From: a virus
Strand: one strand, 5' to 3'
Length of the DNA: 64,000 bases
Virus record (IMG/VR): IMGVR_UViG_3300034272_001701
Span: 32,001 to 96,000 of that record
Shown here: positions 19,726 through 64,000 of the stretch, one piece after another
How positions within the stretch are numbered: the first letter of the stretch is position 1
Layout of the letters: every line of letters begins with the position of its first letter
Position numbers and translations under genes: made by a program
The notes under the pieces: generated by a model
What the model was told of the DNA's origin: nothing
Seen by the model: only the letters and a program-made list of their open reading frames with translations
Databases searched by the model: none

Positions 19726-19952
19726 TATTACACTCGTTTACAATGGGCGATGTTGAAGATCCTTATCTGTATGCTGCTTTTCCTATTAGTGATTGGCAAC
19801 AGACCGAACACGGCAAATGGATAATGTCAAATGTAATTGGTGAACCTACATTTCATATCACGCCTGATCCAAATACATTTGGATACCGTGTGGTAATAAC
19901 AGGCGATCTTACACCCGAAGCAGCAACATTCTTTACATTAAAATATCGATGA
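19722..19952 (+). CDS. Hypothetical protein
   Basis: F.MGDVEDPYLYAA.PI..W...AATFFTLKY. Confidence 0.7.
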   Translation: MILHSFTMGDVEDPYLYAAFPISDWQQTEHGKWIMSNVIGEPTFHITPDPNTFGYRVVITGDLTPEAATFFTLKYR

Positions 19953-20917
19953 GAGCATTAATCACTGGCGCAGCTGGATTTATTGGACACAATGTTGTTT
20001 ACTATCTTGAAAAGCAAGGAGTAGAATGTTTTGGTGTTGACAATAGAACCAACTATGGTTTTATTCCAGCCGACGAGTTAGACTACTTGATACGAGGTAG
20101 ATTACGAAAAATAAGATCATCTCCTTTGGTTGGCGATATAAGAAACACCGAAGACATGCGTAGTCGAGTTGGTACTTTTAGTTGTGATACTATTATTCAT
20201 TTAGCTAGTTTTCCTAGACAGAAAGTTGTTCAGCAGTCACCGGTAGTAGCAAGCGAAGTGATGATTACTGGTTTAATAAATTTATTAGAAGCGGCTGTAG
20301 TACACAAAGTAAAAAAATTTGTATACATAAGTTCTAGCATGGTATATGGAAATTTTGAATCTGGTGTCAATGAATCAGCTGTTTGCTGTCCCCAAGGTCA
20401 ATACGGAATCATGAAATATATGGGCGAGAAGCTTGTTGAGGATTATTGTACAAGACACGCAATACCGTATATAATTATTAGACCAAGTGCAGTATACGGT
20501 GAATGGGACGTCGAGGATCGTGTAGTGAGTAAATTTGCATTAGCAGCATTGCGTGATCAAGAACTAACTGTGCGAGGCGCTAATGAACGTCTTGATTTTA
20601 CACATGTTGACGATACTGCTCAAGGAATTGTTGCAGGTATTTTAAGTAAAAATACAGCCAATAAAATATATAATATCACACGCAGTGATTCAAACACATT
20701 AACTCTATTACAAGCAGCAGAGTTGATAACTGAAATTGTAGGTAAAGGTTCTATCAAGGTAGCAGATAGAGATTTAAACTTTCCAAGTCGCGGTAGATTG
20801 AGTATAGATCGAGCACAACAGGATTTTAATTTTGATCCAAAAATAAATGTAAAAGAAGGATTTGAGCGTTATATTGATTGGTTAAAATCTTCAACCTATT
20901 GGCAGAGTCGACTATGA
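19949..20917 (+). CDS. NAD-dependent nucleotide-sugar epimerase/dehydratase
   Basis: ITGAAGFIG, HLAS, SSSMVYG, YxxxK (YGIMK) and DFTHVDD. Confidence 0.9.
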   Translation: MRALITGAAGFIGHNVVYYLEKQGVECFGVDNRTNYGFIPADELDYLIRGRLRKIRSSPLVGDIRNTEDMRSRVGTFSCDTIIHLASFPRQKVVQQSPVVASEVMITGLINLLEAAVVHKVKKFVYISSSMVYGNFESGVNESAVCCPQGQYGIMKYMGEKLVEDYCTRHAIPYIIIRPSAVYGEWDVEDRVVSKFALAALRDQELTVRGANERLDFTHVDDTAQGIVAGILSKNTANKIYNITRSDSNTLTLLQAAELITEIVGKGSIKVADRDLNFPSRGRLSIDRAQQDFNFDPKINVKEGFERYIDWLKSSTYWQSRL

Positions 20918-22014
20918 ATGTGGTTCCGTTTTTTGGGGTAGATAGACAATATAAAAATCTACGCGAAGAAATTCTTGACATCACTGATAGAGTGTACTCT
21001 ACCGGTCGAGTACTAGATGGAAACTATACTCAAGAATTTGAATTGCGAATCGCGAGACGCTGTAATAGAGCGTATGCATTGGCAGTGAACTCAGGCACCC
21101 AAGGCCTAATATTTGCACAACAGGCTGTGTTAACGAAACCACCGTACGCTGTTTTAATCCCCACTGTTAGTTTTGTAGCTACTATTAATAGTGTTCTAAT
21201 GAACGGATTTATTCCGGTATTTTGTGATGTAGATTTTAAAGGAATTTTAGATTTAGATTCTTATCAATACAAATTAGATGCCAGTGTAGGTGCAATCATG
21301 TATGCGAATCTATTCGGTAATTGCATCGATTGGAATAGATTTAGAATGCAAACAGAATTCTTCAACGACGATTTGGCTGTAATCGAAGATGCCGCACAAA
21401 GTTTTGGTGCAAGTTATCGAGGTATACCTAGTGGCAAGATGGGAGATATCAGTGTATTAAGTTTTGATCCAACCAAGAACTTGAACAACTACGGGTCAGG
21501 CGGAATGATCTTGACTGACAATCTTGATTACTATAACACTTGCTTGGCATTAAGAGACAATGGCAAAGCCATCCATGACATACCAGGCACTAACAGTAAA
21601 ATGAGCGAAGCTGACTGCGCTCAAATGTTAGTCAAACTCAATCACTTTGATGCTTGGCAAGATCGTAGACGAAAGATCGCCGAATACTATATTGATCAAC
21701 TATATCAATACGTTGATATTCTTACGCCAAATGAAGGTGTAGAACATGCTTGGCACAAGTTTGTGATTAGAACCAATCATAGAAACAGTTTGATGCAGAG
21801 ACTAAGCTTGGATGGCATAGAAACCAAGATACATTACGAAAATGCCTTGTACGACCTGGGTGTGGGATTTAACTATGTTGACTACAGCAGAGATCTATAT
21901 ACAGAAACTAGTGCATTTACTAGAGAGTGTTTGAGCTTGCCTATATATCCTGAATTGTCAGATGCCGAAGTTGAAACAGTTGCTGACAGTATCAAACGTT
22001 ATATAGAGTCCTAA
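20914..22014 (+). CDS. DegT/DnrJ/EryC1/StrS family PLP-dependent sugar aminotransferase
   Basis: Likely start ATG 20914; NSGT, IEDAAQSFGA, SFDPTKNL (PLP Lys) and LSLPIYPEL. Confidence 0.9.
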   Translation: MNVVPFFGVDRQYKNLREEILDITDRVYSTGRVLDGNYTQEFELRIARRCNRAYALAVNSGTQGLIFAQQAVLTKPPYAVLIPTVSFVATINSVLMNGFIPVFCDVDFKGILDLDSYQYKLDASVGAIMYANLFGNCIDWNRFRMQTEFFNDDLAVIEDAAQSFGASYRGIPSGKMGDISVLSFDPTKNLNNYGSGGMILTDNLDYYNTCLALRDNGKAIHDIPGTNSKMSEADCAQMLVKLNHFDAWQDRRRKIAEYYIDQLYQYVDILTPNEGVEHAWHKFVIRTNHRNSLMQRLSLDGIETKIHYENALYDLGVGFNYVDYSRDLYTETSAFTRECLSLPIYPELSDAEVETVADSIKRYIES

Positions 22015-23848
22015 ATCTATCAGCCAGCCAAGGCCAATCAAAACTAAGCATTAGTCGATCGTATTCTCCCGCAACTTCCGTGTAGTAATCAACTGCGTCT
22101 TGCGCTCCACGCAAACACCATTCAGCATAATCTCCATTGGCTGTTGTAAGCCATGTGTTGAGTCTATGTTCGGTCTCTAGTGTAGGTGACTGATCCATAA
22201 ACAATTTTAATTTTAATACTTCTCTAAATGCTGTACGCCAAGTGGTCCACGGATCTTGGTTGAAGTATGCAATGGCACTTAGTTCAGGAACCACAGTGTG
22301 TTTTTGACTTAGTGTAAAGTCTAGTCCAGACTCAATGGTTTCTAATACCAATCGTTTGTTGTAAGCAATTACACCCATGTGTCCGTACTCTAAACCGTTA
22401 AGACAATTGCGACTATGGAATATGTAATGCTTGGCTTCTTGCCAGTAGTCCGGTTGCCAAGTAAAATCAAAACTTCCCATAACTTCTAATTTAGCAAACA
22501 CAGCAAAGAACCACGCCGACTCACTTGCTTGTGCAGCAGCATGGTACGCAGCAACTCGTCCATTGACATTTTTTACTCTGTGAACCTTTTGATGTCCATG
22601 TGGTATCTGTGCATCTACCACTGTTACCAAATGATTGTACCAGCGTTCTGCATCAGGCTCTCCGTTGCTAATATACACAATATTCAGTGGTCGATCTGTA
22701 TAATATGCGTCTTTTCTTGTTAAAACATACGGATAATCGTACAATTGTGTCTTGATATGTGCTCGAGCTTCTCTAGGTACTAGACTCATGCTACCTGACT
22801 GATTCAATGGCTCTGCAATTCTATCTTTTGGATGCCATATACACGGTGGTGTAAAAACTGGGTAAAGTGGAAATTCTGTTGTCTTGAAAATGGTATAAGG
22901 AAATTGAAAGTCATGATTGGTAATTGGTTCAACAATACTATCACCATTGTATTGAACAATCGGAACATCCACCGGCACTATTTGAGTGTTACAATAATGT
23001 ATAACATTAAACCAATCAAGCAATTCCAACTCATACAGTTGTGTTCTCAAAGAAGGAACGTGTATATAAAAGGTATCTCCTCGTCGTTGTGCATATTGCC
23101 CACTATGCGAATACGTAGGAAATACGTGAATCATTTCTTGTTGTTCGGGTGCAGGGTGCCAAGTAAAATCAAAATCTGCGTACATACAAAAACTACTAAT
23201 GATCCAAACATACTCTGTGGTTGCCAAGTTTGCAATTCGCTTAAACACATTTAGATGGCTATCAACATAACGAGTAGATTTTGAGTCCGGATATTGTTTT
23301 TTTATTTTAGCAAATTGTTCTTGGCTTCCTTTGTTGAGGAAATCCATATAGAAGATTTGTGTGGCACCTGATTGAATATGCTGACTACTAACAAATTTTA
23401 CGCCAGCAGTTCCTCGATATATTGGACCCCCATCACGCTGCCATTGTGTAGGAAAATGATATTCATAGTCTGGCTCTAGTTCATCTGGATGCCAACTATA
23501 GTCAAAATCTTCGTCATTGATATTAGCGGGTATGATCCATTTTGTTTTATCTGCCAGTCTTGTAGCTTTTTGTTCGTTTCTAAAATGCCATTCTTTATTA
23601 TGTGTTGTATCTTTATTCGCTAGATATGCGCCGCCTGTGCGCTGCCATTGTGTACCAAAGCAGTGTATTTGATTAGATTCCCAAGGAGCCGGGCGCCATG
23701 AAAAATCAAAATCAGCGTAATCGTTATCTCCATAAATATACCAGTAGTGTCCGGTTCTACTTTTCTCAGCTGCATCTTCTAACGAGTCAGCAGGCTGCTC
23801 ATGTGCAAATCTATTAGGTTTAGCTCCATAATAAAAAACGTCAAACAT
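21992..23848 (-). CDS. Multi-repeat glycosyltransferase-like protein
   Basis: Four (D/S)FD(F/Y)(S/T)W.P repeats; last domain is homologous to 38665..39603 (RV..V.G..AA..AAA..S and WR..FRE..K). Confidence 0.6.
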   Translation of the reverse strand: MFDVFYYGAKPNRFAHEQPADSLEDAAEKSRTGHYWYIYGDNDYADFDFSWRPAPWESNQIHCFGTQWQRTGGAYLANKDTTHNKEWHFRNEQKATRLADKTKWIIPANINDEDFDYSWHPDELEPDYEYHFPTQWQRDGGPIYRGTAGVKFVSSQHIQSGATQIFYMDFLNKGSQEQFAKIKKQYPDSKSTRYVDSHLNVFKRIANLATTEYVWIISSFCMYADFDFTWHPAPEQQEMIHVFPTYSHSGQYAQRRGDTFYIHVPSLRTQLYELELLDWFNVIHYCNTQIVPVDVPIVQYNGDSIVEPITNHDFQFPYTIFKTTEFPLYPVFTPPCIWHPKDRIAEPLNQSGSMSLVPREARAHIKTQLYDYPYVLTRKDAYYTDRPLNIVYISNGEPDAERWYNHLVTVVDAQIPHGHQKVHRVKNVNGRVAAYHAAAQASESAWFFAVFAKLEVMGSFDFTWQPDYWQEAKHYIFHSRNCLNGLEYGHMGVIAYNKRLVLETIESGLDFTLSQKHTVVPELSAIAYFNQDPWTTWRTAFREVLKLKLFMDQSPTLETEHRLNTWLTTANGDYAEWCLRGAQDAVDYYTEVAGEYDRLMLSFDWPWLADRFRTLYNV

Positions 23849-24986
23849 GTATAATATTCACAGTCATTATGAAAATTTGTTGTCCTATCTAAACACTATT
23901 ATAGCACAACCCACAGTAATATATTTTCATCCTTTTGGATCAACTCAACCAGAAAATATAGAATCTTTACAAAACGGAGGATTTGGTCCATTAGTTATTG
24001 CATACGATCAAGAACCTCTGTATTCTTTTTATAATACGCCGGTCTTTCAATACATTATTAAAAACTTTAAGAACGACGAAGGGTTTACTCGTCCTATTAT
24101 ATTACTTAACACAGAAAAAGAAAGTGTCGAAAAAACTAAAATACTTAATCAATTTAATTTTAAAGATGCCAATTATTTCTTCCACGGGCTGGCTGCTGCT
24201 GATTGGTACAGAGGATATCAATATTGTACAAATTTAATTCCGCCATCTAAAAGAACCATAAACAAAAAATATATAACCTTCAATCGTATAACTGGAAATT
24301 CTAGAGTGTACAGAAGTTTTCTAATAGGTGAATTAGCGCAACGAAATTTATTAGGGCAAGGGCATGTAAGTTATAGTGAAGTTTGTCCAGTTCACGGTCG
24401 TTATGAAAAAAATATTTTAGAAACTATAAGCAAATATAATATACCGTCTGATTATGTTTTAAAAATTAAGTCCTATTTAGATGAGATCAAAGGTCCTTTA
24501 AGAATTGATTGTGAGGGTAATATACCAAACGGAAGTCAAACCATTGGACCTATTTCTGCTATTATAGAAAGCTTTTTGCATGTTGTTACAGAAACATGCT
24601 TCTGGGATCAGCGTACTCATCTTACTGAAAAAATATTTAAGCCTATTGTAGCAAAACAACCTTTTGTACTTTTAGGTTGTGTTGGTAATTTAAAATATTT
24701 AAAAAGCTACGGATTTAAAACGTTTGATGCTTGGTGGGACGAAGGTTATGATGACATTGCTGATCCCATTGAACGAATACAAGCTGTAGTAAAAATAATC
24801 GAAGAAATCTGCAACACGTCGGACCAGGATCTTGAAAACATGTTGCGAGGAATGAATCATATACTTGAATACAATTATGAACTTTTTTACAGTAAAGAGT
24901 TTGTTAACAGTATTTGGAACGAAATGACTTCTAGTCTGAAATCGTCAATTGCTCAACATTTACCCCAGACTTTAAAAGAAAATTGA
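23847..24986 (+). CDS. Putative glycosyltransferase-like protein (TEK..KP family)
   Basis: HVVTETCF...HLTEKIFKPI...PFVLLG....L.YLKSYGFKTF..WWDE.YD, reminiscent of the GT10 EK motif. Confidence 0.55.
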   Translation: MYNIHSHYENLLSYLNTIIAQPTVIYFHPFGSTQPENIESLQNGGFGPLVIAYDQEPLYSFYNTPVFQYIIKNFKNDEGFTRPIILLNTEKESVEKTKILNQFNFKDANYFFHGLAAADWYRGYQYCTNLIPPSKRTINKKYITFNRITGNSRVYRSFLIGELAQRNLLGQGHVSYSEVCPVHGRYEKNILETISKYNIPSDYVLKIKSYLDEIKGPLRIDCEGNIPNGSQTIGPISAIIESFLHVVTETCFWDQRTHLTEKIFKPIVAKQPFVLLGCVGNLKYLKSYGFKTFDAWWDEGYDDIADPIERIQAVVKIIEEICNTSDQDLENMLRGMNHILEYNYELFYSKEFVNSIWNEMTSSLKSSIAQHLPQTLKEN

Positions 24987-25392
24987 TACCTGCACTATCT
25001 CTATAATCTTTTTTGTAGTACACTGAATGAATGCCACTTTGATAAATGAGTTTGGCACAATCTAAACAGGGTGCGTGAGTAATAAATATGTCCGCACCGA
25101 GCCCACTTTCATTTGACCTAGCAAGCTTTGCTATTGCATTTGTTTCTGCATGTAGTACTTCAGGTTTGGTTTTCAATGAAGTGGTGTCATCTGAATGTTG
25201 CACAACATCTTCACAGTTGTTATCCCAACCAGCCGGCATGCCATTATAGCCAATACTAATGATTCTATCATCTTTAACTACAATAGCACCTACATGTAAT
25301 CTACGTGCATGACTAAGTTCTGCAAATGTTTCCGCAGTTTTCATATAAGCACGTTTAAACTTTTCTTTCATATTTGTTTTTAATTTGTTCAT
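24931..25392 (-). CDS. dCMP deaminase
   Basis: VGAIVV, GYNG.PAG, HAETNAI and PCLDC zinc motifs. Start may be 25371 (MKEKF). Confidence 0.92.
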   Translation of the reverse strand: MNKLKTNMKEKFKRAYMKTAETFAELSHARRLHVGAIVVKDDRIISIGYNGMPAGWDNNCEDVVQHSDDTTSLKTKPEVLHAETNAIAKLARSNESGLGADIFITHAPCLDCAKLIYQSGIHSVYYKKDYRDSAGINFLLKSGVNVEQLTISD

Positions 25393-25795
25393 ATATTATT
25401 TTTGCCCATTTTTCTGCATCTTGTTTGTCAACTTTTATATCGTACTTTTCCGGTGATACAAATATTTGATTGGTATCTGTATACCTGCTTTCATCTATGG
25501 TATCTACCCAAATAACAAAATTAGCATCAAAATTATCTCTCATGACTGGTAGTGGACAAACAAAATCGCATATCACACAATCACTATTCATTTTGTCTGC
25601 CAGTTCTCGCATTCTAACGCTTTGTCTAATACGTCCTTCGACGCTAAAGTCCCAATCATCGTATGCTTGTCTGACTAGGTCTGCGTTAAACCATTCTACA
25701 GTTTTGTTGTCGTCCTGTATTAAATTGCGTAATGCTTCGGCCAATGTAGTTTTACCAGCACCGGGTAGGCCCATGATCAAGATCTTGATTTTCAT
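25355..25795 (-). CDS. cysC: Adenylyl-sulfate kinase-like P-loop kinase
   Basis: MGLPGAGKTTLA, NAD.VR, DFS.EGR.RQ and ICDFVCP....R. Shorter than cellular CysC. Confidence 0.65.
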   Translation of the reverse strand: MKIKILIMGLPGAGKTTLAEALRNLIQDDNKTVEWFNADLVRQAYDDWDFSVEGRIRQSVRMRELADKMNSDCVICDFVCPLPVMRDNFDANFVIWVDTIDESRYTDTNQIFVSPEKYDIKVDKQDAEKWAKIIYEQIKNKYERKV

Positions 25796-26349
25796 ATTTT
25801 GTCAAACCATAACATTATGCTACACCTTGCTAAATCGTCTGGTATATCATGTTCTCTACCATGCATTACAGTGTATCCTTTATCAAAGAACCATCCATAA
25901 TTATCTCTAAATGGCAATTGAAATAAAATTTCTTTGTTATCGTTATAAATTGTAGTACCAATAAATGGATACTCTTTGTCTGAAATATAAATTTGAGCTA
26001 GGTATACACTTCCTTCGTTCTCATAGTGCGGCGCTAGTGTACCAAATCCAGCAAAATCAATCCACAAATCAATTCCGGTATTTTGTACCTTGATTCCTAA
26101 TAGGTGTTCAAGCTGTGTTAGTAAACTAGAAGAAATTACAAAATTTTTTAATGCATTGTACTTTTCGCTTTGTCCTTGATAAACATATCGTGGTCGCCCT
26201 TGTGCCCACTCAGGTATTTTCCAATCTACACTATCTGTTGTAAATTCATTGAATAATTTTTTAATTTTTTCGTGTATATCTTCGGGCAAAAATTCTTCAA
26301 TTAAAAAAACTTTTGACCCAGTTGCTATGTTTACTGTATTAACAATCAT
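25792..26349 (-). CDS. 2OG-Fe(II) oxygenase superfamily protein
   Basis: LWID..G...LAPHYE (HxE), GTTIY, distal MHG and R.S. Confidence 0.65.
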   Translation of the reverse strand: MIVNTVNIATGSKVFLIEEFLPEDIHEKIKKLFNEFTTDSVDWKIPEWAQGRPRYVYQGQSEKYNALKNFVISSSLLTQLEHLLGIKVQNTGIDLWIDFAGFGTLAPHYENEGSVYLAQIYISDKEYPFIGTTIYNDNKEILFQLPFRDNYGWFFDKGYTVMHGREHDIPDDLARCSIMLWFDKI

Positions 26350-27827: not shown

Positions 27828-28446
27828 TAATGTGTTCTGCTGTTCGTTGATGTCCAAGTTCCAAAGGATGTCCTCTTGGGCCTTTAGGGCATTCACCGAC
27901 CCAATCAACCATTGCTTGATTAGGCCATCCTATAAAATATTTTTTATCAATTTGATCTATTAGATCGTTGTTTTTTATATCAGATCTTCTTGTGTCTTGA
28001 TGATTTCCAAACGCATCGAACATTAGATAAGATTTGTTATGTATTTTTAAAAAAGACTGTAAAAGTATAACATTTAATAAGTATTGTCTATACAAGTAAT
28101 CATCATTATGGTGTCTACTGTAATAGTCTGTTATGTCTGCTCTCCACGAATATTGATGTTTTCCAGGAACATTAATTCTTCCTGGCCAAATATCAAATAC
28201 ATCTATTTCATCGGCTATTTCAATTCTATCAAAATGTGTCCATGCAATAATTATTATGTCGTAATTATCAACTTGCTCTACTGCTGTCCTTACAATTTGA
28301 CTGTTTCCCCTTCCGGGGCGTCCTAAGTTTGTTAAATTAGTGTCAAGGGAAACCGATATTAAACTAGGCCACGCAGAAATCTCTGAATTTATTAATTCGT
28401 CACCATGAGTAAAACTGTCGCCGACCGTTAATAATCTTTTTTTCAT
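27793..28446 (-). CDS. SGNH/GDSL-like protein
   Basis: VGDSFTHG, NLGRPGRGN and GHPLELGH. Confidence 0.7.
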   Translation of the reverse strand: MKKRLLTVGDSFTHGDELINSEISAWPSLISVSLDTNLTNLGRPGRGNSQIVRTAVEQVDNYDIIIIAWTHFDRIEIADEIDVFDIWPGRINVPGKHQYSWRADITDYYSRHHNDDYLYRQYLLNVILLQSFLKIHNKSYLMFDAFGNHQDTRRSDIKNNDLIDQIDKKYFIGWPNQAMVDWVGECPKGPRGHPLELGHQRTAEHINEYIRNIGWIS

Positions 28447-41824: not shown

Positions 41825-41838
41825 GTATAAATGTAGAA

Positions 41839-44497: not shown

Positions 44498-44518
44498 TTA
44501 AGTATTCTCCGACTCTGT

Positions 44519-44524: not shown

Positions 44525-44531
44525 TGATGGT

Positions 44532-49892: not shown

Positions 49893-49915
49893 ATCTGTAT
49901 TTAGCTGTGGTTTTA

Positions 49916-55900: not shown

Positions 55901-58900
55901 ATTGTTATTGAACAATACTCTATAGACATCGTTAAAATTGTCCGGAGCGGTAAAGGTACCCGAAAATCCATCAGTTGTGAATTCTGTTATAGTCCTATGA
56001 TAAACATAAACTATTCCCTCGTTCGCCACACCATTCAATGATTTTGTGTTTGCGCCTATTGCGATTGTGGAACTATCTCTATTGGTGGAAATTGCACATC
56101 CAAAATTTGTTTCCGACTCTCCAGTTATTGTCTCTATTAATTTGTAGTAAGATGATCTTCTCAGTACATCAAATCTTTCAAAATTAGTAGGAGCTGTTCC
56201 AAAAGTTAAATTTGTCACCGATCCTTTGCTAGACACTGTTATGGTAATATTGTTTGCCGGTGATGCACCGCCTAGACTGGTTCCTGGAATAGTCAGGGTA
56301 TCTCCGTTGCTATATCCTGATCCGCCATTTATTCTTATTACTGAATAAACACCAGAATTGCTATTAATAACAGTGAATTTAGCTCCAGAACCTGAACCAC
56401 CAGTTGCACTGACATTGGTATATGTCAATGTTCCGCCGCCGGTAACTCCAGTGCCTGAGTGTGTAAAAGAAATAATGCCATTGGATGCTTGAGTAATAGT
56501 GTAATCAACTGTAGGAACATATTCGGCTGATCTTAGTACTGCAAACACTACAATGTCTGTTGGATCGTCTACAGTAGAAGACAAAGTAAATGCAGTGGCA
56601 GAACCATCACCTTCAAATGATTGTGTATCTTCTGCTCGGGTCTTCAATGCATAACAAAATACTTTATCGGCGCCCGGGGATCCTATATAAAGATAAACCC
56701 CATCTCTACTCATTGCCAACGATTCACCAAATTTGTAGTTTGCTGAACCAGATGGATCTGTTAATAATTGTACTAACACTCCATCCTTGTATACGTAAAC
56801 ATATCCTCTGTTCGTTGCACTGTCAGGTGCGCCTACAGCAAAATAACCTGTGCCGTTTGCCAATGACTTACCAAACCCGTCTAGATTATTACTATTACCG
56901 TACAAAAACGAACTAGGAGCCCAGGAATTAGTTCCAACTCTACCAAAAATAGCAGCTCTTCCTGTACCAGACTCTGGAGCTCCTGCATATAGGAAATTGG
57001 CATTGTTAGGATCTAAGCTGACAACTTTTCCAAAAAAATCGTTTCCTGATAATTTACTTGCATCTAATTCAATTTTTGTTGCAAAATTCCATGGATCAAT
57101 TTTGTTGTAAACACCCCAATTTTGATTTTCGTCAAGGTTATTCACCCATATTTTATCGTTTGGTATCCACCCGGCAGTGGGTCTAATAGAGTCTACATCT
57201 TTTAAATAATCAATTTTGCTTGATGTTAATTTAAACAATATTCCTATACCAGCAAATGCCTGTGTTTCTTGCATTTGCTGAAGATTTTGATACAGACGTA
57301 CATAAAATCTAGTACTGTCAATTATACTATCAACTTGATAGACGCCATCAAATTGCGGTTCAAAATTTTTGATTACCACAAGATCATTAACAGTTAAACC
57401 ATGATCTCTATCAAAAATAACTTCCACTAGATCGTCAATGTTATATCTAAGGCCAAAAATATACCCATTTACCAGACTGGCTCTATAGACATTCCAATTT
57501 TTATCAAAGTCTCGTGCTACCCAAATTTTGTATCCTATACCAATGTTATTAACAATAGTTGTTAAAGTTTCATAATCACTCAAGTCAAATATTGTTGCAT
57601 CGATATCATCTAGGTTTACAAATCCAGCAACCGGTAAAGGTTTAAAGGCATTCGGTTCTTCCATGCTGTTAACACGGAATATGTTTGCTTGATATTCTCC
57701 GGATGATTTAAATATGTTGTTAATATCAATTGCCAGTACGTCTGATTCTTCTTGTACTGTATTATCAATCAATTGAAAAGCTGTTGGATTACTACTAAAA
57801 TCAGATTCGTTTAATTCAAATTCAAAGAATTTATTAATATCAGTGGCGCCATACTCGCCAACACGAACAGCCCAGTTTTCGTAAAAATTAATATCAGTGT
57901 CTAAATTTCCAAAAGTGGCTCCTTGTAATGCATTAAGTGCATTTACTGTGCCTTTTTGTTTAATGAATCCTTGATAGAATTTACTCTGTGTAGTTGGATC
58001 TATACCTAAATTTGTAAAATATTCTCTGTTTCTGAATCCTATTAGTCCGTTACTAAACAGTTGTAAATCTTCGTTTATTGGCTGATTATCTATATCGTAG
58101 AAATTAATACCCTGTTGAGCATTGGTAGCAAAATTATTAATGACTCCAGATTTTAATTCAGAAGAAGGAATCAGTTGCCAATTATTTGTTTGGAACTGGT
58201 CTGATGCAATGACGTTTTGAATTGCAGTATAAAATCTAAATTTGTACTTAACAATAGAACCTTTCAAATAATCTTTTCCAGACTCCCATTCGTCAATGAC
58301 GTCGCTACTGTAAATAAAGCCTGGTAATTCTAAATTACCATTCCAGGTTAAAGTTTTTGCTCCAACTAGTTTTAATCGATACTGTCTATTACCTAATTCA
58401 GGAACATAAATGATGTCGTTAAAAACAGTAATATTGTCTAGTATTAGTAAATGTTCATATTGAACTAGGTCTAGTTCTGCAAACCCAACAGTTTGATCAG
58501 CGTTAGAGATAAAAGTGAATACATTATTATCTCGACTGATAGTAAAATTATTTTTTATAATTGGTTTAAAATTAATATCTAACACTCTGCTCGAGTACGG
58601 AGTGTTCTTTATTTCGTCAACAACAGATGCACTGTCAAACACCTTTAACTTAGTCGACACTGGACTTAATACAATAATACTATTGGTTTTCCATCCTTGC
58701 CCGGCCCAATGCAAAAATTCTTTGGCACTAAGAACCCAATCTTTTTGCTCTTGTAGATCGTCTTCTCTATCAATAAAAATAAAACCTTGTGCTAATAGAT
58801 ATCTTTGATAGCTGACTAGAAAATCAACTACCTGTTGTTTGGTATTAAATTCAAATCCATAAGGCACAGTGTATTTTGCTTTTTTAAAGTCTTTATAAAC

Positions 58901-61900
58901 CGTTCCTCTTTGATTTCCGGAAGTGATAGTGTATGCGTTATTATTGACTTGACTAGGAATAATAAAGAAATAAGGATTCGTTAAGTCGTATCCGCTCACT
59001 ACATAACCGGCTGCACTTTTTTCAACAATAACAGCACTATAGGTAATTTTGTTTACCGGACTACCTTTAAACAACTCAATTCTATAATTCTCTTCGGGCA
59101 CTATAACGCTATCACTAATACTGCTTGGGCTGCTTTGTTCTGCAAGTAATTCAATGAATTTTTTGTCAGTGTACCCGGCCATCTTGTATGCCAACTGAAC
59201 ATCTAGCGATGCAAGATTGTCTTTGATCAATATTGATGCATCAGCGATACCTAAATTTTTAACGTAATCTCTAATCCAGTTTAAATAACCAGAATTTCGT
59301 TCTACGGTAGTACCGTTGTTGTAGCCCTGTACCAAGAGAGCCGTAGGTGTGAGATGTTGTCCAGTGCTGGCTATTTCAAATTGAGCTGTGACTGGGTTTC
59401 TAGTGTAATTTTGAGTGTTTGCTAGCAAAGAAAAATACTTGGCTGGCTTGGCTAAAGCTAGGGCCAGTTGCATAGCAAATGCATATTCACTACTTCTGCG
59501 CCATGCAGTTTCCACTGGTCCCATATCGCCAACTGCAAAGTTGATATTAGCTTTTCCGCTATCAAAATCAGCAACAAGTATCTTTTCAGGACTTACTAAA
59601 TCTCCGTTGTCGTCAACAGGCACATATTGTGCAAGATTAGGGCGTTGATATCTTGAATCAAAACCAGACCGACTACCGGCATGAATATATCCAAGACTCA
59701 GGTCGCTCCATAATAAACCGTTTCCTCCGGTGTAAGGGGCAGGACCGTATCTGTCATTCCAATAGTCTGGCTTTTCGCTGAATCCCAACATCTCCCATGG
59801 ATGAGTATGTGGTCTATCAGTATCATAAAAATAACGATAGATACTGCGCCAAGCTCCGGGTAAAGTCTCTCCGTTGACTACGTCTCTAAATCTTCTATAG
59901 TTCCATGTGAACGGATCTGATGCATTGAAGTTATTGTTGTCTGAATAGTTTAATCTATTAGTTCCTATCCAAGACAAGAATCCTTGACTTAAAATTTGTG
60001 TAAATTCTGTCAATGAATAATCTGTAGGTCTAAATTTGCCTGGTATGTAATCATGTACATTAAAAATGTTCGTGTCGTATTGAACTTTAATATTATTATA
60101 AATTCTACGCTCTAATTCTAATATTAGATTGTCTCTAAAATCATTGAATGCCGGTATAATACTACCATCATGTCCTTGAATTACATTTATTGGTTCTCTA
60201 TAGGTATCGTCTACATAAATTTCAGGATAGAATTTTGGATACATTCCCATCTTGGTTGGTGTTTCGGGAACAAAGCAGCCGTCTGTGGTACTGTATTCAA
60301 CAATGTCAATTTTATCGCCATATAGTAAACCAAATGAGTCATTGATCGTAATCGCTGGCCGATCCTGTCTGAAAATAAAATCTCTGTCTTTGATTAATAA
60401 TGTTTTTGATGTAATGGTATTAATTGTTCTTGTGAGATAAACTAGAACAGCTTTGTTGCTTATAACTTTATCATTGAAAATACTTGTAATTTCATAACTT
60501 GTAATATCTGGGTCTAACACTGTATATGTAGGAATTACAGTTTTGCCTAGATCTCCATATGGAAACATATCACTGTAATACCAAGGAAACGATTCGTTTT
60601 TAACGGCATTAATTTGTAGCATAATAGCATCTACGCTGCCTGCAACGTCATCGCGATTTAAATCTAAATTACCTGCTAGTTCTAAAAATTTAATCTTGAA
60701 TTTTGTATATTCTCTATTGGCCAATTTAAGCGCATTTACAAAATTCATTGTAGGATGATTTAAAAATAGCCCAGAATAAACTACAGGAGCACTGTGCTGT
60801 AGAACACTTCCCCCTTTATTCATATATTGAATATCTCTTAGATTACTGTTTCCAGGAACCTTACCAATGATATCTAAACTATTGTTTTTTAGCGTAATCA
60901 AATGATTACGCATTTGCCCTAGTGTTAATGTTTCAAGATTGGTATTTAAACTATTCACATCAAGATTAAGAGGTACTTCGTAATATGCATTTGGTGAAAC
61001 TAAATCTTTATTAAAGATGCTAACAAAAATAACATCATCTTTAACAATTAAATCAGGATTGACTAGCACTGCAAATTGATCAACTACACGAGTTACTGCA
61101 AAATTTCCTATGTCCAAGATCGCGTTGTTTACTGTAACTTTTATGTTTGGATTAATAATACTGGTATCAGGTATATTATCAATTGGAAATAGGTTGGTTT
61201 CGCCATCGTATGTGAATTGATAATTTTGATATTGATGGCTAAAGTCTCTATTAATAGTCCAAATGTTCTGTCTTTGACAAGTTGATACGCTAACATTTTT
61301 TTGTAAATATCCTGCATTTACTGTCACTGTTTCTATACCACCGCCACCAATGAGATAATCAAATGTTTGAGTATCATAATCATTTGTGAACTGAATATCT
61401 CCTTGACTTACAAAGTTTTTATAACTTAGCGGAAACCCAATGACAGGATCATTGTTGCCAGTTCCTCTTTTGTAAGAAAATATTTTTGTTCCTTGAAATG
61501 TTGTACCAGGATAAACAGAGCTGTCAGAAAAACTTATACCGTCATCGTTAATTAAATCAAATAATGGTTCTTGATTATTACCGGTTTTTTCTTGAGACGC
61601 GGCCCACGACGTTCCATTATAATACCAATGTTTTCCGCCATTTGATCCCGACAGAACAAGAACTGTATTTCCTGCCACCACAGTTGCATCTTCTGCTTCT
61701 TGGATAAAAGCTTTATACACCAATGGATCAGGCGCTTCAGTGGTTGTTTCTATAGAAAATTTATAAATTTTATTTCTTACATCATTATTAATGTCATTGG
61801 AAAAAATAACCCTATCGCCTGTAGTAAGAGTCAAATCGCCCACTGTGAATGTTTTTTCATCAACACAAACTAATCCTTGTATCTGTGTAAAAGCATTTGT

Positions 61901-64000
61901 AATTGTTGTGTCAAGAATATCTATAGGTTGTTTGGCTTCAGCACCAAATTTGTATAGTTGCAAGCTGGCATCAAATTCAATTACTGGTCTGCTTGCTCTT
62001 AAATTTTGATTAAAAATTGCGTCTGTACCGTTGTAGTCTGCAGTTTTTTGAATTACATCCATATGGAACCAACGGTTCGCTCTTGACCAAGGATTTCTAT
62101 CTATACTAGATCTTTTAATGGTCATGTAATCTTGTACTGCAGGTTGCAGATAGGCATTAATTAATGCATTTGTGCCGGATCCGCCAATTAGTGCAACAGG
62201 ATTGGTTGGTAAAGTAGAATAATTACCCCTGTCTTTGATTTTAAAAGCACCAATTGGTCCAGAGGTTGGGGCTCCAATAGTTACTGCCGGCGTAGCAAAA
62301 TATCCACTGCCAGCCGAATCAATAATGATATTGGTAACAACGCCATTGGCAATTACCGCATGAGCAAATGCACTTGTTCCACCAACAGGAGCTGATTCTA
62401 TTGTCACAGTAGGAGCACTTGTATATCCTGATCCGCTGTGTGTAATATTGATTGAAGTCAATACTCCACTGATTGTATTAATACTTGCCTCAACGGTTGC
62501 AGTATCTTCCACAATGTCTGTTACCACTGCCGTTGCAACTGCTGTGCCTACACCACCCTCGAATGTAAGTCGATCTCCTACTACATAATTTTGTCCTGGT
62601 TCAACAATTGTGCTTGTATTAATAGCCTCAATCGAAGTTAATTCTGATTCAGCAACCAGAGTAATAGATTCGCCCACGCCTTCTACATAAAAGTTTTTAT
62701 TTCTCCATACTTCAGGAGCACTAGCGTCAAACCTTACTTTTAATCCATTAGTAAAACTGACTCCGTTTGGGCTGATATAATTAATTTGTCCTAAAATTTC
62801 TACATCTGGGTCAATGGTACTGCTAGTGGGTTCAATTAATCGTATGCCGCCAATTGCATCATTATCCTCTCCACTTTGATAAAATAAGTTATCCAATGGA
62901 GCTGTAATATAAGGTACCAATGTCAGTAAATTTAATCTAGAATAAAACTCTCTACCAGCATATTCTTGACCTGCTTTAATTCTTACTTTGTGTTCATTGG
63001 AAATTGGAAATTTTGGAAATAAAATGATACGCTCTTCGTCATTTTCATCTCTTTCAATTTTTATTGTAAAAATACTTGTTCTTTGCTCAAAAGGAATTAA
63101 ACTATTCTGATCAAAATAAGCAACACCGTCCTCTACTCTAGACGTATCAACCCAATACGCATCATCTATAAATGCAGGATTTACAAAAACAACAGATGCG
63201 TTTTCTAAATATCTTACCGTGCCATCAATACCACCTAAATTTTCATTTAATTCTTGAGGTTTAGCTCCCAAGATTTGATTAAACGATAAATTGGTTGCAT
63301 AATCTACATCATCAACAATAGGCATCGATGTCCAACGATTTTGAGCATTGTTGGCTGGTACTGTAAATCTAACAGTGCCAACTGATTGACCGTTGTTGGA
63401 AACACCAAAAACTTGTCTAATATCTAAATTTGGAGAATCTGTATCAATGCCGTTTACGCCTGGTTTGTATTGAATATAAAATTCATTTCCAGGTTCGTTG
63501 ATGATAAAATCGTAAACTCCTCCTCTTGACAATGTAATTGTGGGATTGGGAGTTTTTCCGTATCCACTGAATTCGTATGTTCCTGACGTGGGGTTATATA
63601 TTACATTGAAGCTATCTTCTAGGGGAGTACCTACTGCAGAAATTACTACAGGATCAGGACCATTATCCAACCAATAATATTGGCTAAAATTAACAAACTT
63701 GTCTAGATCCATTCTAGGATTATAGGTATAATATTCATTGTCAAACAATCGACTGTGATTGTTTGTTAGTCCTCCATAATACCTAATTTTATTAATTATG
63801 TCTGCATAAGTGGTTGCAAATTCAACTTCGTTTGTAACATCATTTTTTAAAACCAAGGATGGTTCAAGTTGATAGTTTTGTCTATCTTTTGTGCCTTCTT
63901 CAATATAGCTGTCGGCTGTTTTATATGATGGAGCTAATTTTCTTCCAATGTACCCGTTAATTTTTTTGAGCGATGGCTCACTAATCAATTGGTCAAGGGT
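49916..64000 (-). CDS. Giant baseplate/tail structural protein (>4,690 aa, start lies beyond the window edge)
   Basis: Frame is open through base 64000. Contains G.GYT..P.V.I repeats, FG-GAP-like propeller repeats, five ~50-aa YxLSTxW propeller blades and HAPEEL.PG. Confidence 0.85.
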   Translation of the reverse strand, partial: TLDQLISEPSLKKINGYIGRKLAPSYKTADSYIEEGTKDRQNYQLEPSLVLKNDVTNEVEFATTYADIINKIRYYGGLTNNHSRLFDNEYYTYNPRMDLDKFVNFSQYYWLDNGPDPVVISAVGTPLEDSFNVIYNPTSGTYEFSGYGKTPNPTITLSRGGVYDFIINEPGNEFYIQYKPGVNGIDTDSPNLDIRQVFGVSNNGQSVGTVRFTVPANNAQNRWTSMPIVDDVDYATNLSFNQILGAKPQELNENLGGIDGTVRYLENASVVFVNPAFIDDAYWVDTSRVEDGVAYFDQNSLIPFEQRTSIFTIKIERDENDEERIILFPKFPISNEHKVRIKAGQEYAGREFYSRLNLLTLVPYITAPLDNLFYQSGEDNDAIGGIRLIEPTSSTIDPDVEILGQINYISPNGVSFTNGLKVRFDASAPEVWRNKNFYVEGVGESITLVAESELTSIEAINTSTIVEPGQNYVVGDRLTFEGGVGTAVATAVVTDIVEDTATVEASINTISGVLTSINITHSGSGYTSAPTVTIESAPVGGTSAFAHAVIANGVVTNIIIDSAGSGYFATPAVTIGAPTSGPIGAFKIKDRGNYSTLPTNPVALIGGSGTNALINAYLQPAVQDYMTIKRSSIDRNPWSRANRWFHMDVIQKTADYNGTDAIFNQNLRASRPVIEFDASLQLYKFGAEAKQPIDILDTTITNAFTQIQGLVCVDEKTFTVGDLTLTTGDRVIFSNDINNDVRNKIYKFSIETTTEAPDPLVYKAFIQEAEDATVVAGNTVLVLSGSNGGKHWYYNGTSWAASQEKTGNNQEPLFDLINDDGISFSDSSVYPGTTFQGTKIFSYKRGTGNNDPVIGFPLSYKNFVSQGDIQFTNDYDTQTFDYLIGGGGIETVTVNAGYLQKNVSVSTCQRQNIWTINRDFSHQYQNYQFTYDGETNLFPIDNIPDTSIINPNIKVTVNNAILDIGNFAVTRVVDQFAVLVNPDLIVKDDVIFVSIFNKDLVSPNAYYEVPLNLDVNSLNTNLETLTLGQMRNHLITLKNNSLDIIGKVPGNSNLRDIQYMNKGGSVLQHSAPVVYSGLFLNHPTMNFVNALKLANREYTKFKIKFLELAGNLDLNRDDVAGSVDAIMLQINAVKNESFPWYYSDMFPYGDLGKTVIPTYTVLDPDITSYEITSIFNDKVISNKAVLVYLTRTINTITSKTLLIKDRDFIFRQDRPAITINDSFGLLYGDKIDIVEYSTTDGCFVPETPTKMGMYPKFYPEIYVDDTYREPINVIQGHDGSIIPAFNDFRDNLILELERRIYNNIKVQYDTNIFNVHDYIPGKFRPTDYSLTEFTQILSQGFLSWIGTNRLNYSDNNNFNASDPFTWNYRRFRDVVNGETLPGAWRSIYRYFYDTDRPHTHPWEMLGFSEKPDYWNDRYGPAPYTGGNGLLWSDLSLGYIHAGSRSGFDSRYQRPNLAQYVPVDDNGDLVSPEKILVADFDSGKANINFAVGDMGPVETAWRRSSEYAFAMQLALALAKPAKYFSLLANTQNYTRNPVTAQFEIASTGQHLTPTALLVQGYNNGTTVERNSGYLNWIRDYVKNLGIADASILIKDNLASLDVQLAYKMAGYTDKKFIELLAEQSSPSSISDSVIVPEENYRIELFKGSPVNKITYSAVIVEKSAAGYVVSGYDLTNPYFFIIPSQVNNNAYTITSGNQRGTVYKDFKKAKYTVPYGFEFNTKQQVVDFLVSYQRYLLAQGFIFIDREDDLQEQKDWVLSAKEFLHWAGQGWKTNSIIVLSPVSTKLKVFDSASVVDEIKNTPYSSRVLDINFKPIIKNNFTISRDNNVFTFISNADQTVGFAELDLVQYEHLLILDNITVFNDIIYVPELGNRQYRLKLVGAKTLTWNGNLELPGFIYSSDVIDEWESGKDYLKGSIVKYKFRFYTAIQNVIASDQFQTNNWQLIPSSELKSGVINNFATNAQQGINFYDIDNQPINEDLQLFSNGLIGFRNREYFTNLGIDPTTQSKFYQGFIKQKGTVNALNALQGATFGNLDTDINFYENWAVRVGEYGATDINKFFEFELNESDFSSNPTAFQLIDNTVQEESDVLAIDINNIFKSSGEYQANIFRVNSMEEPNAFKPLPVAGFVNLDDIDATIFDLSDYETLTTIVNNIGIGYKIWVARDFDKNWNVYRASLVNGYIFGLRYNIDDLVEVIFDRDHGLTVNDLVVIKNFEPQFDGVYQVDSIIDSTRFYVRLYQNLQQMQETQAFAGIGILFKLTSSKIDYLKDVDSIRPTAGWIPNDKIWVNNLDENQNWGVYNKIDPWNFATKIELDASKLSGNDFFGKVVSLDPNNANFLYAGAPESGTGRAAIFGRVGTNSWAPSSFLYGNSNNLDGFGKSLANGTGYFAVGAPDSATNRGYVYVYKDGVLVQLLTDPSGSANYKFGESLAMSRDGVYLYIGSPGADKVFCYALKTRAEDTQSFEGDGSATAFTLSSTVDDPTDIVVFAVLRSAEYVPTVDYTITQASNGIISFTHSGTGVTGGGTLTYTNVSATGGSGSGAKFTVINSNSGVYSVIRINGGSGYSNGDTLTIPGTSLGGASPANNITITVSSKGSVTNLTFGTAPTNFERFDVLRRSSYYKLIETITGESETNFGCAISTNRDSSTIAIGANTKSLNGVANEGIVYVYHRTITEFTTDGFSGTFTAPDNFNDVYRVLFNNNVLREGTDWYRPGGTLNVVQFPGFSTPTAGQRVRVETNQFILNQTLNASDIGITGQKFGSILALCGTGCNLYISSPYYAEVNYATGLITRYVNVGRVYGQITGSVSNPTVTAGHTLVINDRNIQFSGTTLTSVVNSINNANIPGVSAEIYQNKLRINSDVVVANDKLDIKPGSVGTAFSDLGIQIYKKTQTIKHPNNIGERFGTSLGLSQSYGVIGVGSEGADIDIPISFDQLVSLTTFDSNSTLFVDRVKDSGAVYMYDLLENPFESVDNPSTFAFTQKLVGPDLETGFNFGSSVSLVDGTMAVGVSNDFSIVPGGGSIYTYYNQNNKAGWELIRYKDSQVDPKSLNSAFIYNKKNQTIINFFDTYDPAKGKILGIVDQELDYKEEYDPASYNTVSRSDGILNTTFYWSNRHVGRTWWDTSRASFIEYEQGPLQYRVKNWGNLFPGSQVKIYEWVESNFLPSQYTANGGNGTPKYPDNSAYTSVNIVDPATGIISQKYYYWVGGKTSVDSIKAKRTLSVSSLESYISNPKDQNIPYIAAIATNSAALYNVSNLLTSKDIVLHIETCDINNSNIIHNEYQLIQQGNPSQVLPARIINKLKESYRGFDEAGKLVPDPKLNAENQLGLLIRPRQGIFVNRISALQSYVQNLNEIFVQYPVLLISNASELYSEEAPPVNFDDQVASFAELSYLDMDTFADGYTILIPIDSRYSGRWTYYRFNGITKEFDLQAIQSYKTDLWWTPKDWYSSEYVEGTDISQVVFNYGAIQTFDLVADQYIQILDDGAGNWQIYRVESDLSLTLIAAQNATLTLSDRLYKTLWGAGFDTTVFDIIDFDPTAGIEIGKIFDSVYQELLINSLAGEFNKTFFSIVNYIFSEQKNPDWIFKTSFIDVYHNLRTLEQIPNYIRDNQSFYNEYINEAKPYRTAVREYVPLYSKIDIATGSWTDFDVPGRYYTTESIYKSPDINSPTDAEYFNLPIYSAYAENYKYKITDYIIGNAGINYTTAPNVEIIGGGGNGASAITTINPATGKLTGIYVINPGSGYTSTPTVFINGVGSGATAYPILHNEYNTNGSYNTVRDITTTLKFDRITYSSNIVQWQPNTAYRQTIIVDGNKANAWNLDRMEFNETNNSLGDQDADITEVFFDDTGTKMYIAGNDSNRIYQYTLSTAWDATTASNVGAVSVAAQDTNVQGLYFRDDGVKMYIVGTTNDNVYEYRLATPWMVNTASNVSAKSISSQESSPRAIEFSKDGINMYVLGTLNDRVYQYTLSTPWQVETASYAGKNISVTAQDNFPTALRFKPDGTKFYIVGQQNDTLFEYTLSTNWDISTATFSNSYRLNTSTATGLYFKYDGTGMYVSDSSTNSVQNYIFNSVGIVPIESNVYITSGNIIYYNNVAYIATNANVSSQSVFDFSRYTKINDGNVLLSAADRITSYYFAEVGRPGKDFGQLMFGTEYPGNKVEGKNFLANSYAITSNVIGFNYTGMRITSANIQQVDFAKGGFDLNDTLRIQGQYDFPFKNNADFRIISIDHSEMMLAGPPIETLYTITLNSNVSLQAGDYITQANTRANAFVLHDYPSANVIQIIHSITGFTVSANTISINGVPQSARISEIIAGGTANVKITNLTIDTLLDSNIASFYKDTALGTRPEDINIVGGAYVDGYSSHAPEELIPGRVFDALELRVFTNNASNTATYGFREFQPMRGNIEFYRISGNATTTLSANLNITDTDVYVTDASLLPDPGAAVGIPGEVFINGELIHYYQKYDAAKILTADPWTPNTVFAPDHLIAHSGNTYLVLANVYANSTAYISSSNVRQVFVNTLSQLRRGVDGTGAANLHPTGTKVVDSSLVQVLPNTAPKFTTLTGSFNVAANVTWRIQLGAPITANVGSYITQNSNTANVKLLETVSSSNTVAVQFVSGNLTIGSDTVAIFNPGSSTWQTTAANVRAMRILGEVNSSGNVVLTSDTILQSNLWIPLGTGVGLEGSTSEAAQFIRQEVSYTP
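51810..52510 (-). repeat. Five ~50-aa beta-propeller repeats within the giant protein
   Basis: F..(D/T)G..(M/F)Y(I/V) occurs five times; the first four copies are followed by Y.L.T.W. Confidence 0.75.

Follow-up and report, generated by a model that had tools for sequence, protein, structure and literature searches.

The stretch of DNA analyzed here (the window) comprises 64,000 nucleotides, bases 32001-96000 of one 112,472-bp IMG/VR virus record (IMGVR_UViG_3300034272_001701). The completeness of the contig is 31% by CheckV, which gives an implied genome of ~360 kb, and the lineage is that of the ~350-kb aquatic jumbo myophages, kin of RsoM2USA, Atu_ph07, and Rak2. Behind its tail fiber genes, the uncultured phage harbors a conserved island, 22 kb long, of glycosyltransferase (GT), radical S-adenosylmethionine (SAM), and sugar-tailoring genes, here called the module, which probably constitutes a self-contained system for the assembly and editing of a glycan in the cytoplasm. 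By predicted structure, the island contains three GT-A-class transferases: two with the GT8 fold and one DxD GT-A enzyme that has a DxD-less paralog. A set of 30 related IMG/VR loci (L001-L030) was gathered by one radical SAM query and their genes were mapped with tblastn; the cultured relative discussed throughout is the Ralstonia phage RsoM2USA (MG752970).

Transferases, radical SAM enzymes, and tailoring enzymes of the island

The transferases, the proteins that resemble them, and two small open reading frames (ORFs) beside them are the following (lengths in amino acids, aa):

41510..41824, minus strand: 104-aa conserved protein overlapping the first GT gene, with homologs in L001/3/6/7
40753..41547, minus strand: GT8-like glycosyltransferase b, paralog of the 39924 product (hhalign 98%), with the motif DVD
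39924..40766, minus strand: GT8-like glycosyltransferase a (AlphaFold2, AF2, pLDDT 87, pTM 0.89)
39575..39949, minus strand: 124-aa protein between the GTs; ORFs of similar size lie there in L013 (92 aa) and RsoM2USA (ORF351)
38665..39603, minus strand: GT-A-fold DxD transferase with a helical C-terminal domain (AF2 pLDDT 81)
32367..33299, minus strand: TEK..KP protein, paralog of the 23847 product and of the ORF at the left edge
23847..24986, plus strand: second TEK..KP protein, paralog by alignment
21992..23848, minus strand: 618-aa protein with four DFDFSW.P repeats and a DxD-less copy of the 38665 domain

Structures were predicted with AF2 for two proteins, those encoded at 39924-40766 and 38665-39603. 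The former is matched by Foldseek to glycogenin, UGGT, XXYLT1, and LgtC (E 3e-8 to 5e-6, probability 1.0) and also to viral GT8s in BFVD. Judged from the alignment, not from fold position, the DxD motif is an invariant D93-x-D95 in the 40753 product and E95-x-D97 in the 39924 product. Neither member of the pair has a Pfam (Glyco_transf_8) or PHROG match at E 0.01 or a PDB profile match, and both would be GT8-like by predicted fold only. The two GT8-like genes proposed in an earlier note on this DNA are thus retained, one through its fold and the other as its paralog.

In the 38665 product, residues 8-160 are predicted to adopt a GT-A fold (VIA Z 8-9.7), for which the nucleotidyltransferases MobA and IspD score similarly; the Foldseek matches include RmlT, PBCV-1 A64R, and SunS. 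There is no Pfam Glycos_transf_2 match; GT2 hits below threshold (E 1e-3 to 4e-3) come from two remote members of the family. The D69-G70-D71 motif (DGD) is invariant in the family, and together with the fold it agrees with the DxD GT that had been proposed; with GT8 and GT-A folds both predicted, GT folds are indeed present among the putative GTs. The family numbers 1460 representatives in a library-wide profile search. Members of ~715-810 aa contain a GT1/GT28-type GT-B domain ahead of the GT-A domain (P0202, P0193, P0247), one such fusion being Agarivorans WP_329776821.1, named "glycosyltransferase," and others are fused to Sel1 repeats (P0185, P0232, P0260). Among 401 Pseudomonadota genomes, the family occurs only on a short contig of a Polynucleobacter metagenome-assembled genome (MAG).

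Residues 386-577 of the 618-aa protein are a paralog of the 38665 domain (hhalign 99.6%) in which FAK replaces DGD. This protein family is found in viruses only, and in other phages the 618-aa-type and 38665-like domains are fused in one protein. Its DFDFSW.P-type motifs lie near residues 45, 113, 225, and 457, the last just past the expected DxD position of the GT-A-like domain. For the TEK..KP proteins, earlier described as GT-like, an Atlas GT10 feature score of 0.80 (32367 and 23847) provides a lead in that direction, but neither Pfam nor the PDB gives a match. No family match was obtained for 41510-41824, which has a homolog at the same place in RsoM2USA (ORF354, E 2e-9), or for 39575-39949. 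Profile searches against PDB sequences with the families of 38665, 39924, 21992, 29285, 28516, and TEK..KP returned chance-level matches only.

The radical SAM array is composed of five genes with an N-terminal twitch:

37286..38671, minus strand: radical SAM 1, SC.HP subtype (NF033640, E 1e-93), ortholog of RsoM2USA ORF349
35944..37299, minus strand: radical SAM 2, SC.HP subtype (NF033640, E 7e-88)
34487..35947, minus strand: radical SAM 3 (NF033640, E 4e-115)
33286..34500, minus strand: radical SAM 4 (NF033640, E 1e-104), with more than 7900 metagenomic relatives
30408..31703, minus strand: radical SAM 5 (NF033640, E 2e-87)

All five are full-length matches to the NF033640 N_Twi_rSAM model, at 293-385 bits vs a curated cut-off of 170, which bears out the five twitch paralogs recognized in the earlier note. 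They are old paralogs, 17-27% identical to one another; the ortholog of radical SAM 2 is RsoM2USA ORF202 (50% identity). Four N-terminal Cys are followed by CxxxCxxC and GGEP, and the invariant Cys of the alignment are C8, C27, C73, and C76, then the core C123/C127/C130. Pfam SPASM precedes Radical_SAM in three of the five genes, those in which SPASM is detected. A sixth N-terminal-twitch radical SAM gene (genome C1:13555-14709, plus strand, outside the window; NF033640, 223 bits) is an intact 384-aa frame distant from the module.

NF033640 is rare in bacteria, with occurrences in 3 of the 401 Pseudomonadota genomes. In the genome G102, four consecutive copies are flanked by rmlC, rmlD, and Wzm and, at the opposite end, by genes for two methyltransferases (one of TylF type) and a WbsX glycosyltransferase. 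The leading copy forms one 854-aa open frame with Wzt (ABC_tran + Wzt_C; L054 G102:C19:8579-11143, minus strand). In G173, a copy lies near a short-chain dehydrogenase/reductase (SDR) gene and a GT2 gene. The association and the fusion suggest that NF033640 radical SAM enzymes act in glycan pathways; a literature search found no study of the reaction of the family.

The sugar-making, tailoring, and remaining genes of the module are:

29285..30439, minus strand: 384-aa conserved protein, 51-78% identity in the 10 closest loci
28516..29307, minus strand: SGNH-like protein, S9, G40, N43, and H237 invariant across 23 homologs
28443..28544, minus strand: 33-aa ORF ending ..RDPFIYK, after the SGNH-like gene
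27793..28446, minus strand: DUF6071 protein with a GDS motif, SGNH-like (Pfam DUF6071, E 1e-9)
26346..27908, minus strand: carbamoyltransferase of NodU/CmcH type (Carbam_trans_N, E 3e-35; Carbam_trans_C, E 6e-47)
20878..22014, plus strand: DegT-family sugar aminotransferase (Pfam DegT_DnrJ_EryC1, E 1.5e-74, profile positions 3-359/360)
19949..20917, plus strand: SDR nucleotide-sugar epimerase/dehydratase (Pfam Epimerase, E 4e-41)
31696..32370, minus strand: 224-aa protein with an N-terminal GxxGxxG, in only 4 loci
25792..26349, minus strand: 185-aa protein with a possible H-x-E...H pattern by eye
25355..25795, minus strand: 146-aa P-loop kinase-like protein (APS_kinase and KTI12 match residues 4-88 only)
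24931..25392, minus strand: dCMP deaminase at the end of the array (Pfam dCMP_cyt_deam_1)

The Pfam matches sustain the carbamoyltransferase, epimerase, and DegT assignments. The nearest NCBIfam models are dTDP-glucose 4,6-dehydratase for the SDR protein and PseC and WecE-like for the DegT protein, all below cut-off, and the carbamoyltransferase, 45% identical to RsoM2USA ORF199, does not reach the NodU equivalog cut-off. SDR and DegT would together form the usual pair for the synthesis of amino-deoxy nucleotide sugars. The claim of two SGNH proteins stands at the motif level, through the invariant S/G/N/H residues of the 28516 product and the DUF6071 match of the 27793 product, but the former, which is present in 27 loci and has three homologs in RsoM2USA, has no Pfam or PDB match. 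In 27 of the 30 loci, an ORF of 33-36 aa follows the SGNH-like gene as it does here; its product has a basic helix and ends invariantly in ..(K/R)DPFIYK. In RsoM2USA, the DPFIYK peptide lies in the carbamoyltransferase locus (L056:11168-11278). This ORF, the 618-aa protein, and the dCMP deaminase are additions to the gene list of the earlier note. For the 29285-30439 product, no credible family or PDB match was obtained.

Several functions proposed from inspection are not confirmed. The "Rossmann reductase" (31696) has no family or PDB match, and the "2-oxoglutarate oxygenase" (25792) has no match in Pfam, NCBIfam, PHROGs, or the PDB. The P-loop protein encoded at 25355, a gene inside the module also in L012 and L020, scores 38-40 bits against adenosine 5'-phosphosulfate (APS) kinase models with cut-offs of 127-139. 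An APS kinase providing a sulfate donor is thus not upheld, the protein falling below all curated cut-offs and no sulfurylase or sulfotransferase being seen. The gene overlaps that of the dCMP deaminase by 38 nt. The deaminase probably serves nucleotide supply, not glycan work, and it is accounted for by the canonical set of ThyA, DHFR, and dCMP deaminase.

Linkage to the virion genes and conservation in related phages

The minus strand from 64000 to 41892 consists of virion protein genes, followed by a short gap ahead of the module:

49916..64000, minus strand: giant virion structural protein (>4690 aa), continuing past the window edge
49215..49919, minus strand: structural, baseplate-associated protein (phrog_11259, E 5e-67)
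48082..49209, minus strand: tail-fiber-like protein (several tail-fiber PHROGs)
44936..48079, minus strand: 1047-aa fiber/adhesin-like protein with a glycine-rich domain (Pfam Gly_rich_2, E 1.7e-10)
42848..44497, minus strand: tail fiber with a C-terminal autoproteolytic chaperone domain (Pfam Peptidase_G2 IMC domain and tail-fiber PHROGs)
41892..42836, minus strand: 314-aa Ser/Thr/Gly/Asn-rich fiber-like protein, with same-position homologs in L001, L003, L006, L012, L013, and L019
41825..41891, minus strand: 67-nt gap with CTAAATA and a 9-bp hairpin (ACTGGTTAG/CTAACCAGT), read directly

Matches to phrog_10938, phrog_11259, and tail-fiber families support the view that tail and baseplate genes share the strand of the module. 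The giant protein matches phrog_10938, "virion structural protein" (E=0, 1148 bits), and is a weak homolog of RsoM2USA ORF361, while the N-terminus of the 48082-49209 protein matches RsoM2USA ORF355. Homologs of the 49215-49919 protein occur in 93 jumbo phages by tblastn (Atu_ph07, 121Q/Rak2-like), where they are annotated as structural or baseplate proteins. In 13 related loci, the C-terminal part of the 42848-44497 fiber sits immediately upstream of the module. The 41892-42836 protein has no family match in Pfam or PHROGs, and it would be the nearest candidate acceptor.

From 41824 down to 24931, all minus-strand gene junctions of the module overlap, in keeping with the tight coupling of module and tail genes noticed earlier; the only gaps are those of 67 nt (41825-41891) and 34 nt (44498-44531). 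A late promoter motif had also been ascribed to the module, but the exact T4-type late promoter TATAAATA occurs in one copy in the window, at 3351, ahead of a QueD-like gene, and is depleted there (1 observed vs 8.35 expected from shuffles). Scans of sigma-70 promoters and terminators gave no more than the shuffle level.

The synteny expected among related phages is present in all 30 IMG/VR contigs, which share the order fiber C-terminus, 41892-like gene, GT8b, GT8a, GT-A, five radical SAM genes, SGNH-like gene, carbamoyltransferase, SDR, DegT, and 618-aa protein. Identity to the related loci is 60-90% in a nearer and 40-60% in a farther group, and the genomes of both are estimated alike at ~355-363 kb. 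Twelve core genes keep order and overlap at identities down to 40%; the genes at 31696, 32367, 29285, 25792, and 24931 are found in the closest relatives only. No module protein is represented in PHROGs v4, and a megablast search with the module had no match among 50,697 phage records. A single scan of genome contigs for the module radical SAM genes returned only a 2.5-kb contig of the Polynucleobacter MAG. In this MAG (G001), the contigs C193, C40, C94, and C86, several of them 2-3-kb, carry close homologs of module genes, with 71% identity to the 34487 product and E 3e-138 to the 38665 family; these matches are either a hint at the host or a binning artefact.

Among the same 50,697 phage records, RsoM2USA is the sole carrier of the 38665 family. 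It has orthologs, at 28-50% identity, of the 41510 gene, both GT8-like genes, the GT-A gene, two radical SAM genes, the SGNH-like genes, the DPFIYK peptide, and the carbamoyltransferase. The order on its structural strand is ORF362-364, giant ORF361, SDR ORF358, fiber-like ORF355, and ORF354 (the 41510 homolog), then GT8b, GT8a, ORF351, GT-A, a radical SAM gene, and a second GT-A-like gene. ORF362-364 were given as baseplate genes, and ORF361 was assigned to a virion gel band, in a study whose virion data are Coomassie bands and peptide identifications (PMC8504454). A second locus, at 123-130 kb among small non-structural genes, comprises SGNH-like, radical SAM, SGNH-like, DPFIYK peptide, SGNH-like, and carbamoyltransferase genes. 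Linkage of the module to tail genes in relatives therefore holds for the GT part, which follows the fibers in RsoM2USA, but not for the editing half, which lies more than 90 kb away.

The plus-strand left part of the window carries DNA and nucleotide genes. The features there and on the adjoining contig are:

window 1-747 (full gene at genome 31689-32747), minus strand: third TEK..KP paralog, the left-edge ORF (phmmer E 8e-18 to the 23847 product)
762-1550, plus strand: short UDP-sugar dehydrogenase-like (ugd-like) gene, 262 aa, without the C-terminal domain
1547-5047: QueD- and QueE-like genes and a phosphoribosyltransferase gene
10909-13739, plus strand: pair of a MoxR-type AAA ATPase and a DUF2201 metallopeptidase/VWA-like protein
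17234-18658, plus strand: DHFR and ThyA (thymidylate synthase)
genome C1:30597-31274 (outside the window), plus strand: 225-aa protein with ~6 hydrophobic segments, the sole multi-pass membrane protein of the contig

The ugd gene placed at the left edge does exist, as the short ugd-like gene at 762-1550 (plus strand), but is not the edge ORF, which is divergent from it. The deazaguanine genes lie apart from the module, in a plus-strand block of their own at a distance of 15-20 kb; the 225-aa six-segment protein adjoins them and may, as a guess, be a precursor transporter. The thymidylate synthase (17741-18658), adjoined by DHFR, is above the equivalog cut-off and is the sole PF00303 match on the contig. 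The DUF2201-type protein and homologs of 15663 and 16256 are kept beside the module in the distant loci L014-L026.

The possible product and its acceptor

In the mechanism proposed here, the transferases would act in the cytoplasm to place a short chain of sugars on an acceptor. The radical SAM enzymes would edit this glycan by redox or epimerisation-type chemistry at single sugar positions, and the aminotransferase, the carbamoyltransferase, and the SGNH proteins (through O-acyl handling) would edit it further. The acceptor may be the distal tail proteins of the phage itself, the upstream fibers and first those encoded at 41892-42836 and 42848-44497, giving rise to decorated fibers. No membrane segment was found in any module protein, which implies that assembly would be cytoplasmic, with either a soluble acceptor or a lipid-linked intermediate of the host as substrate. 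Apart from the six-segment protein mentioned above, the contig has no multi-pass membrane protein of the kind expected of a flippase, polymerase, ligase, or priming transferase.

Several observations favor an acceptor that belongs to the phage itself, the simplest candidates being the distal tail proteins. The GT set is fixed behind fiber genes in three diverged sub-lineages, the proteins are soluble and accompanied by the module's own nucleotide-sugar enzymes, and conservation is gene for gene across phages of Ralstonia and of aquatic hosts; the chlorovirus, mimivirus, and mycobacteriophage precedents point the same way by analogy. Of the phage-encoded virion glycosylation system that the earlier note envisaged, the part that makes, transfers, and decorates sugars is supported by the folds, the fusions, the O-antigen context, and the 30-contig order, but the virion acceptor is plausible only. 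The full reading, a glycan island with virion proteins as acceptor, is accordingly put forward as quite possible, and tentatively. Its generalization is doubtful: jumbo phages of Gram-negative hosts would autonomously glycosylate their own tail fibers with a short glycan, which several radical SAM edits, an amination, a carbamoylation, and O-acyl handling would then alter. Such a coat would be of a type new for virions, and NF033640 would have its first assigned chemistry.

A number of points weigh against virion proteins as the acceptor. This assignment draws on gene content and position, and the adjacency to fibers may reflect the fixed genome plan of one lineage or a permissive variable island. 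The dCMP deaminase gene, which overlaps the last module gene and is translationally coupled to the 3' end of the array, speaks against a purely "late structural" unit, and no exact TATAAATA was found near the module. In bacteria, the context of the radical SAM family is surface polysaccharide, not glycoprotein. In RsoM2USA, the structural genes occupy ~224-285 kb and the editing half is more than 90 kb from them; this split implies that the editing enzymes can do without linkage to tail genes. The NF033640 cluster of the Vibrio phage K566 stands among non-structural genes. The sole published reading of such cassettes is modification of the host O-chain (PMC7029224).

Remodelling of the host envelope comes close behind the virion reading, owing to the polysaccharide context, the RsoM2USA split, and the published interpretation just mentioned. 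In this case, the soluble enzymes would alter a lipid-linked host glycan (O-antigen, capsule, or lipopolysaccharide (LPS) core) at the cytoplasmic face, and host exporters would display it. Such a role is rather unlikely, as is the effect that it might have, a block of superinfection or progeny kept from sticking to debris. The O-antigen modifiers known from phages are membrane proteins and belong to temperate phages, which counts against it, as do the lack of a membrane protein in the module and of a multi-pass candidate priming transferase, flippase, or ligase on the contig. For it speak the NF033640 copies in the ABC-transporter O-antigen cluster of G102, one of them Wzt-fused, the second bacterial copy beside SDR and GT2 genes in G173, the LPS transferase LgtC among the GT8 fold matches, the separation of the editing half from the tail genes in RsoM2USA, a PagP-annotated gene near the K566 radical SAM cluster, and the same role having been proposed for the GT8/LPS/radical SAM cassettes of marine myophages (PMC7029224). 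It is at odds with the fixed position of the GT part behind the fibers and with the occurrence of the same module in a Ralstonia isolate and in uncultured aquatic phages, where host O-antigens would be expected to differ.

The remaining explanations concern other products. The 33-aa DPFIYK peptide could be a precursor that is modified by the radical SAM enzymes and glycosylated, in the manner of mycofactocin or glycocins, or the product could be an aminoglycoside-like small molecule; both are improbable. Mycofactocin does combine a small peptide, a radical SAM enzyme, and a GT, and in 2-deoxystreptamine pathways a DegT-family aminotransferase is partnered by BtrN, a twitch radical SAM enzyme. 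The micro-ORF is kept, with its invariant C-terminus, in 27 of 30 loci and in RsoM2USA, and the fold matches of the 38665 product include two S-glycosyltransferases of glycocins, SunS and ThuS, but the SunS matches are no better than those of many GT-A enzymes, and the RsoM2USA peptide goes with the carbamoyltransferase/SGNH locus, ~90 kb from the GTs. No peptidase was recognized among the module proteins, and no search was made for an RRE-type leader-binding domain. Short ORFs also flank SxtI (PMC2885083), which makes an accessory role of the peptide simpler. 

More improbable again is DNA hypermodification, in which sugars would be put on a modified base in the phage DNA and then edited. Pyridoxal phosphate enzymes, kinases, and radical SAM enzymes do occur in thymidine hypermodification pathways, the array contains a dCMP deaminase and a small P-loop kinase, and the contig has the QueD-/QueE-like and phosphoribosyltransferase genes; however, thymidylate synthase and DHFR point to an ordinary dTMP supply, the single PF00303 match means that no hydroxymethylase is seen on the contig (~31% of the genome), the deazaguanine block is separate from the module, and the bacterial context of the radical SAM family is a polysaccharide cluster. 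The least probable account, and a very improbable one, is that there is no common product and that unrelated auxiliary genes have gathered in a variable island beside the fibers. Such islands have been termed hypervariable (PMC7029224), and the genes at 31696, 32367, 29285, 25792, and 24931 are limited to the closest relatives, but the conserved order and overlap of the twelve core genes in 30 contigs and the domain fusions that link members of the module argue otherwise.

If the fibers are decorated, receptor binding, recognition by immune systems or grazers, and particle stability would hinge on a phage-made sugar coat, in phages that form an abundant group of aquatic giants. For the large NF033640 family, carbohydrate chemistry is suggested by the Wzt fusion and by the arrays in phages, and it can now be assayed. 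With RsoM2USA in culture, routine methods can discriminate among the virion, the host surface, and DNA as targets.

Comparison with known systems

A close layout by description is the host-recognition cluster of marine T4-like pelagi- and cyanomyophages, in which GT8, LPS-type, and radical SAM cassettes occur with tail fibers after a giant baseplate-type protein; the island was called hypervariable, and the phages are similar to marine cyanomyophages (Zaragoza-Solas et al., 2020, PMC7029224). By description, both systems have a giant baseplate-type gene, fibers, and GT8-type and radical SAM genes. The present island is conserved gene for gene in ~350-kb jumbo phages, in contrast to the hypervariable one.

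Virus-encoded clusters of soluble GTs with their own nucleotide-sugar enzymes decorate the virions of chloroviruses and mimiviruses (PMC10117803, PMC8456856), and glycosylation of mycobacteriophage capsids and tail tubes has been described (Freeman 2023, as cited in PMC12619734). The present island likewise has soluble GTs and nucleotide-sugar enzymes beside structural genes. Like the systems of PBCV-1 and mimivirus, it would combine soluble, cytoplasmic GT-A/GT8-type transferases with its own SDR/DegT-type enzymes, and A64R is among the fold matches of the 38665 product. There is no detectable sequence homology to the chlorovirus, mimivirus, or mycobacteriophage systems, which have no radical SAM array or carbamoyltransferase; their virions have been shown to be glycosylated, whereas the present system is known from genes alone.

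With the ABC-transporter O-antigen clusters (Wzm/Wzt with Wzt_C), the island shares the radical SAM family, as seen in G102 with its Wzt fusion. Unlike these clusters, the phage encodes neither a transporter nor a priming transferase or ligase, and its GTs were not found in them. In the saxitoxin cluster, short ORFs flank the O-carbamoyltransferase SxtI (PMC2885083); here too a NodU/CmcH-family carbamoyltransferase goes with a very short conserved ORF, a likeness in layout between unrelated pathway contexts.

Within the same lineage, RsoM2USA divides the system between two loci ~90 kb apart (ORF348-355 and ORF199-203), in which two radical SAM genes were found vs five here. Its homologous genes are all annotated "hypothetical," and the radical SAM and carbamoyltransferase genes go unmentioned in the RsoM2USA paper (PMC8504454). 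The NF033640 N_Twi_rSAM family, which here forms a fixed array of five diverged paralogs in a phage glycan island, was already catalogued, and cassettes of GT, LPS, and radical SAM genes beside fibers were described in 2020 (PMC7029224). What is new is the failure of the proposed kinase, oxygenase, reductase, and promoter to be confirmed, the Wzt fusion and O-antigen context, the DxD-less paralog, the GT-B fusions, and a cultured representative with a split layout.

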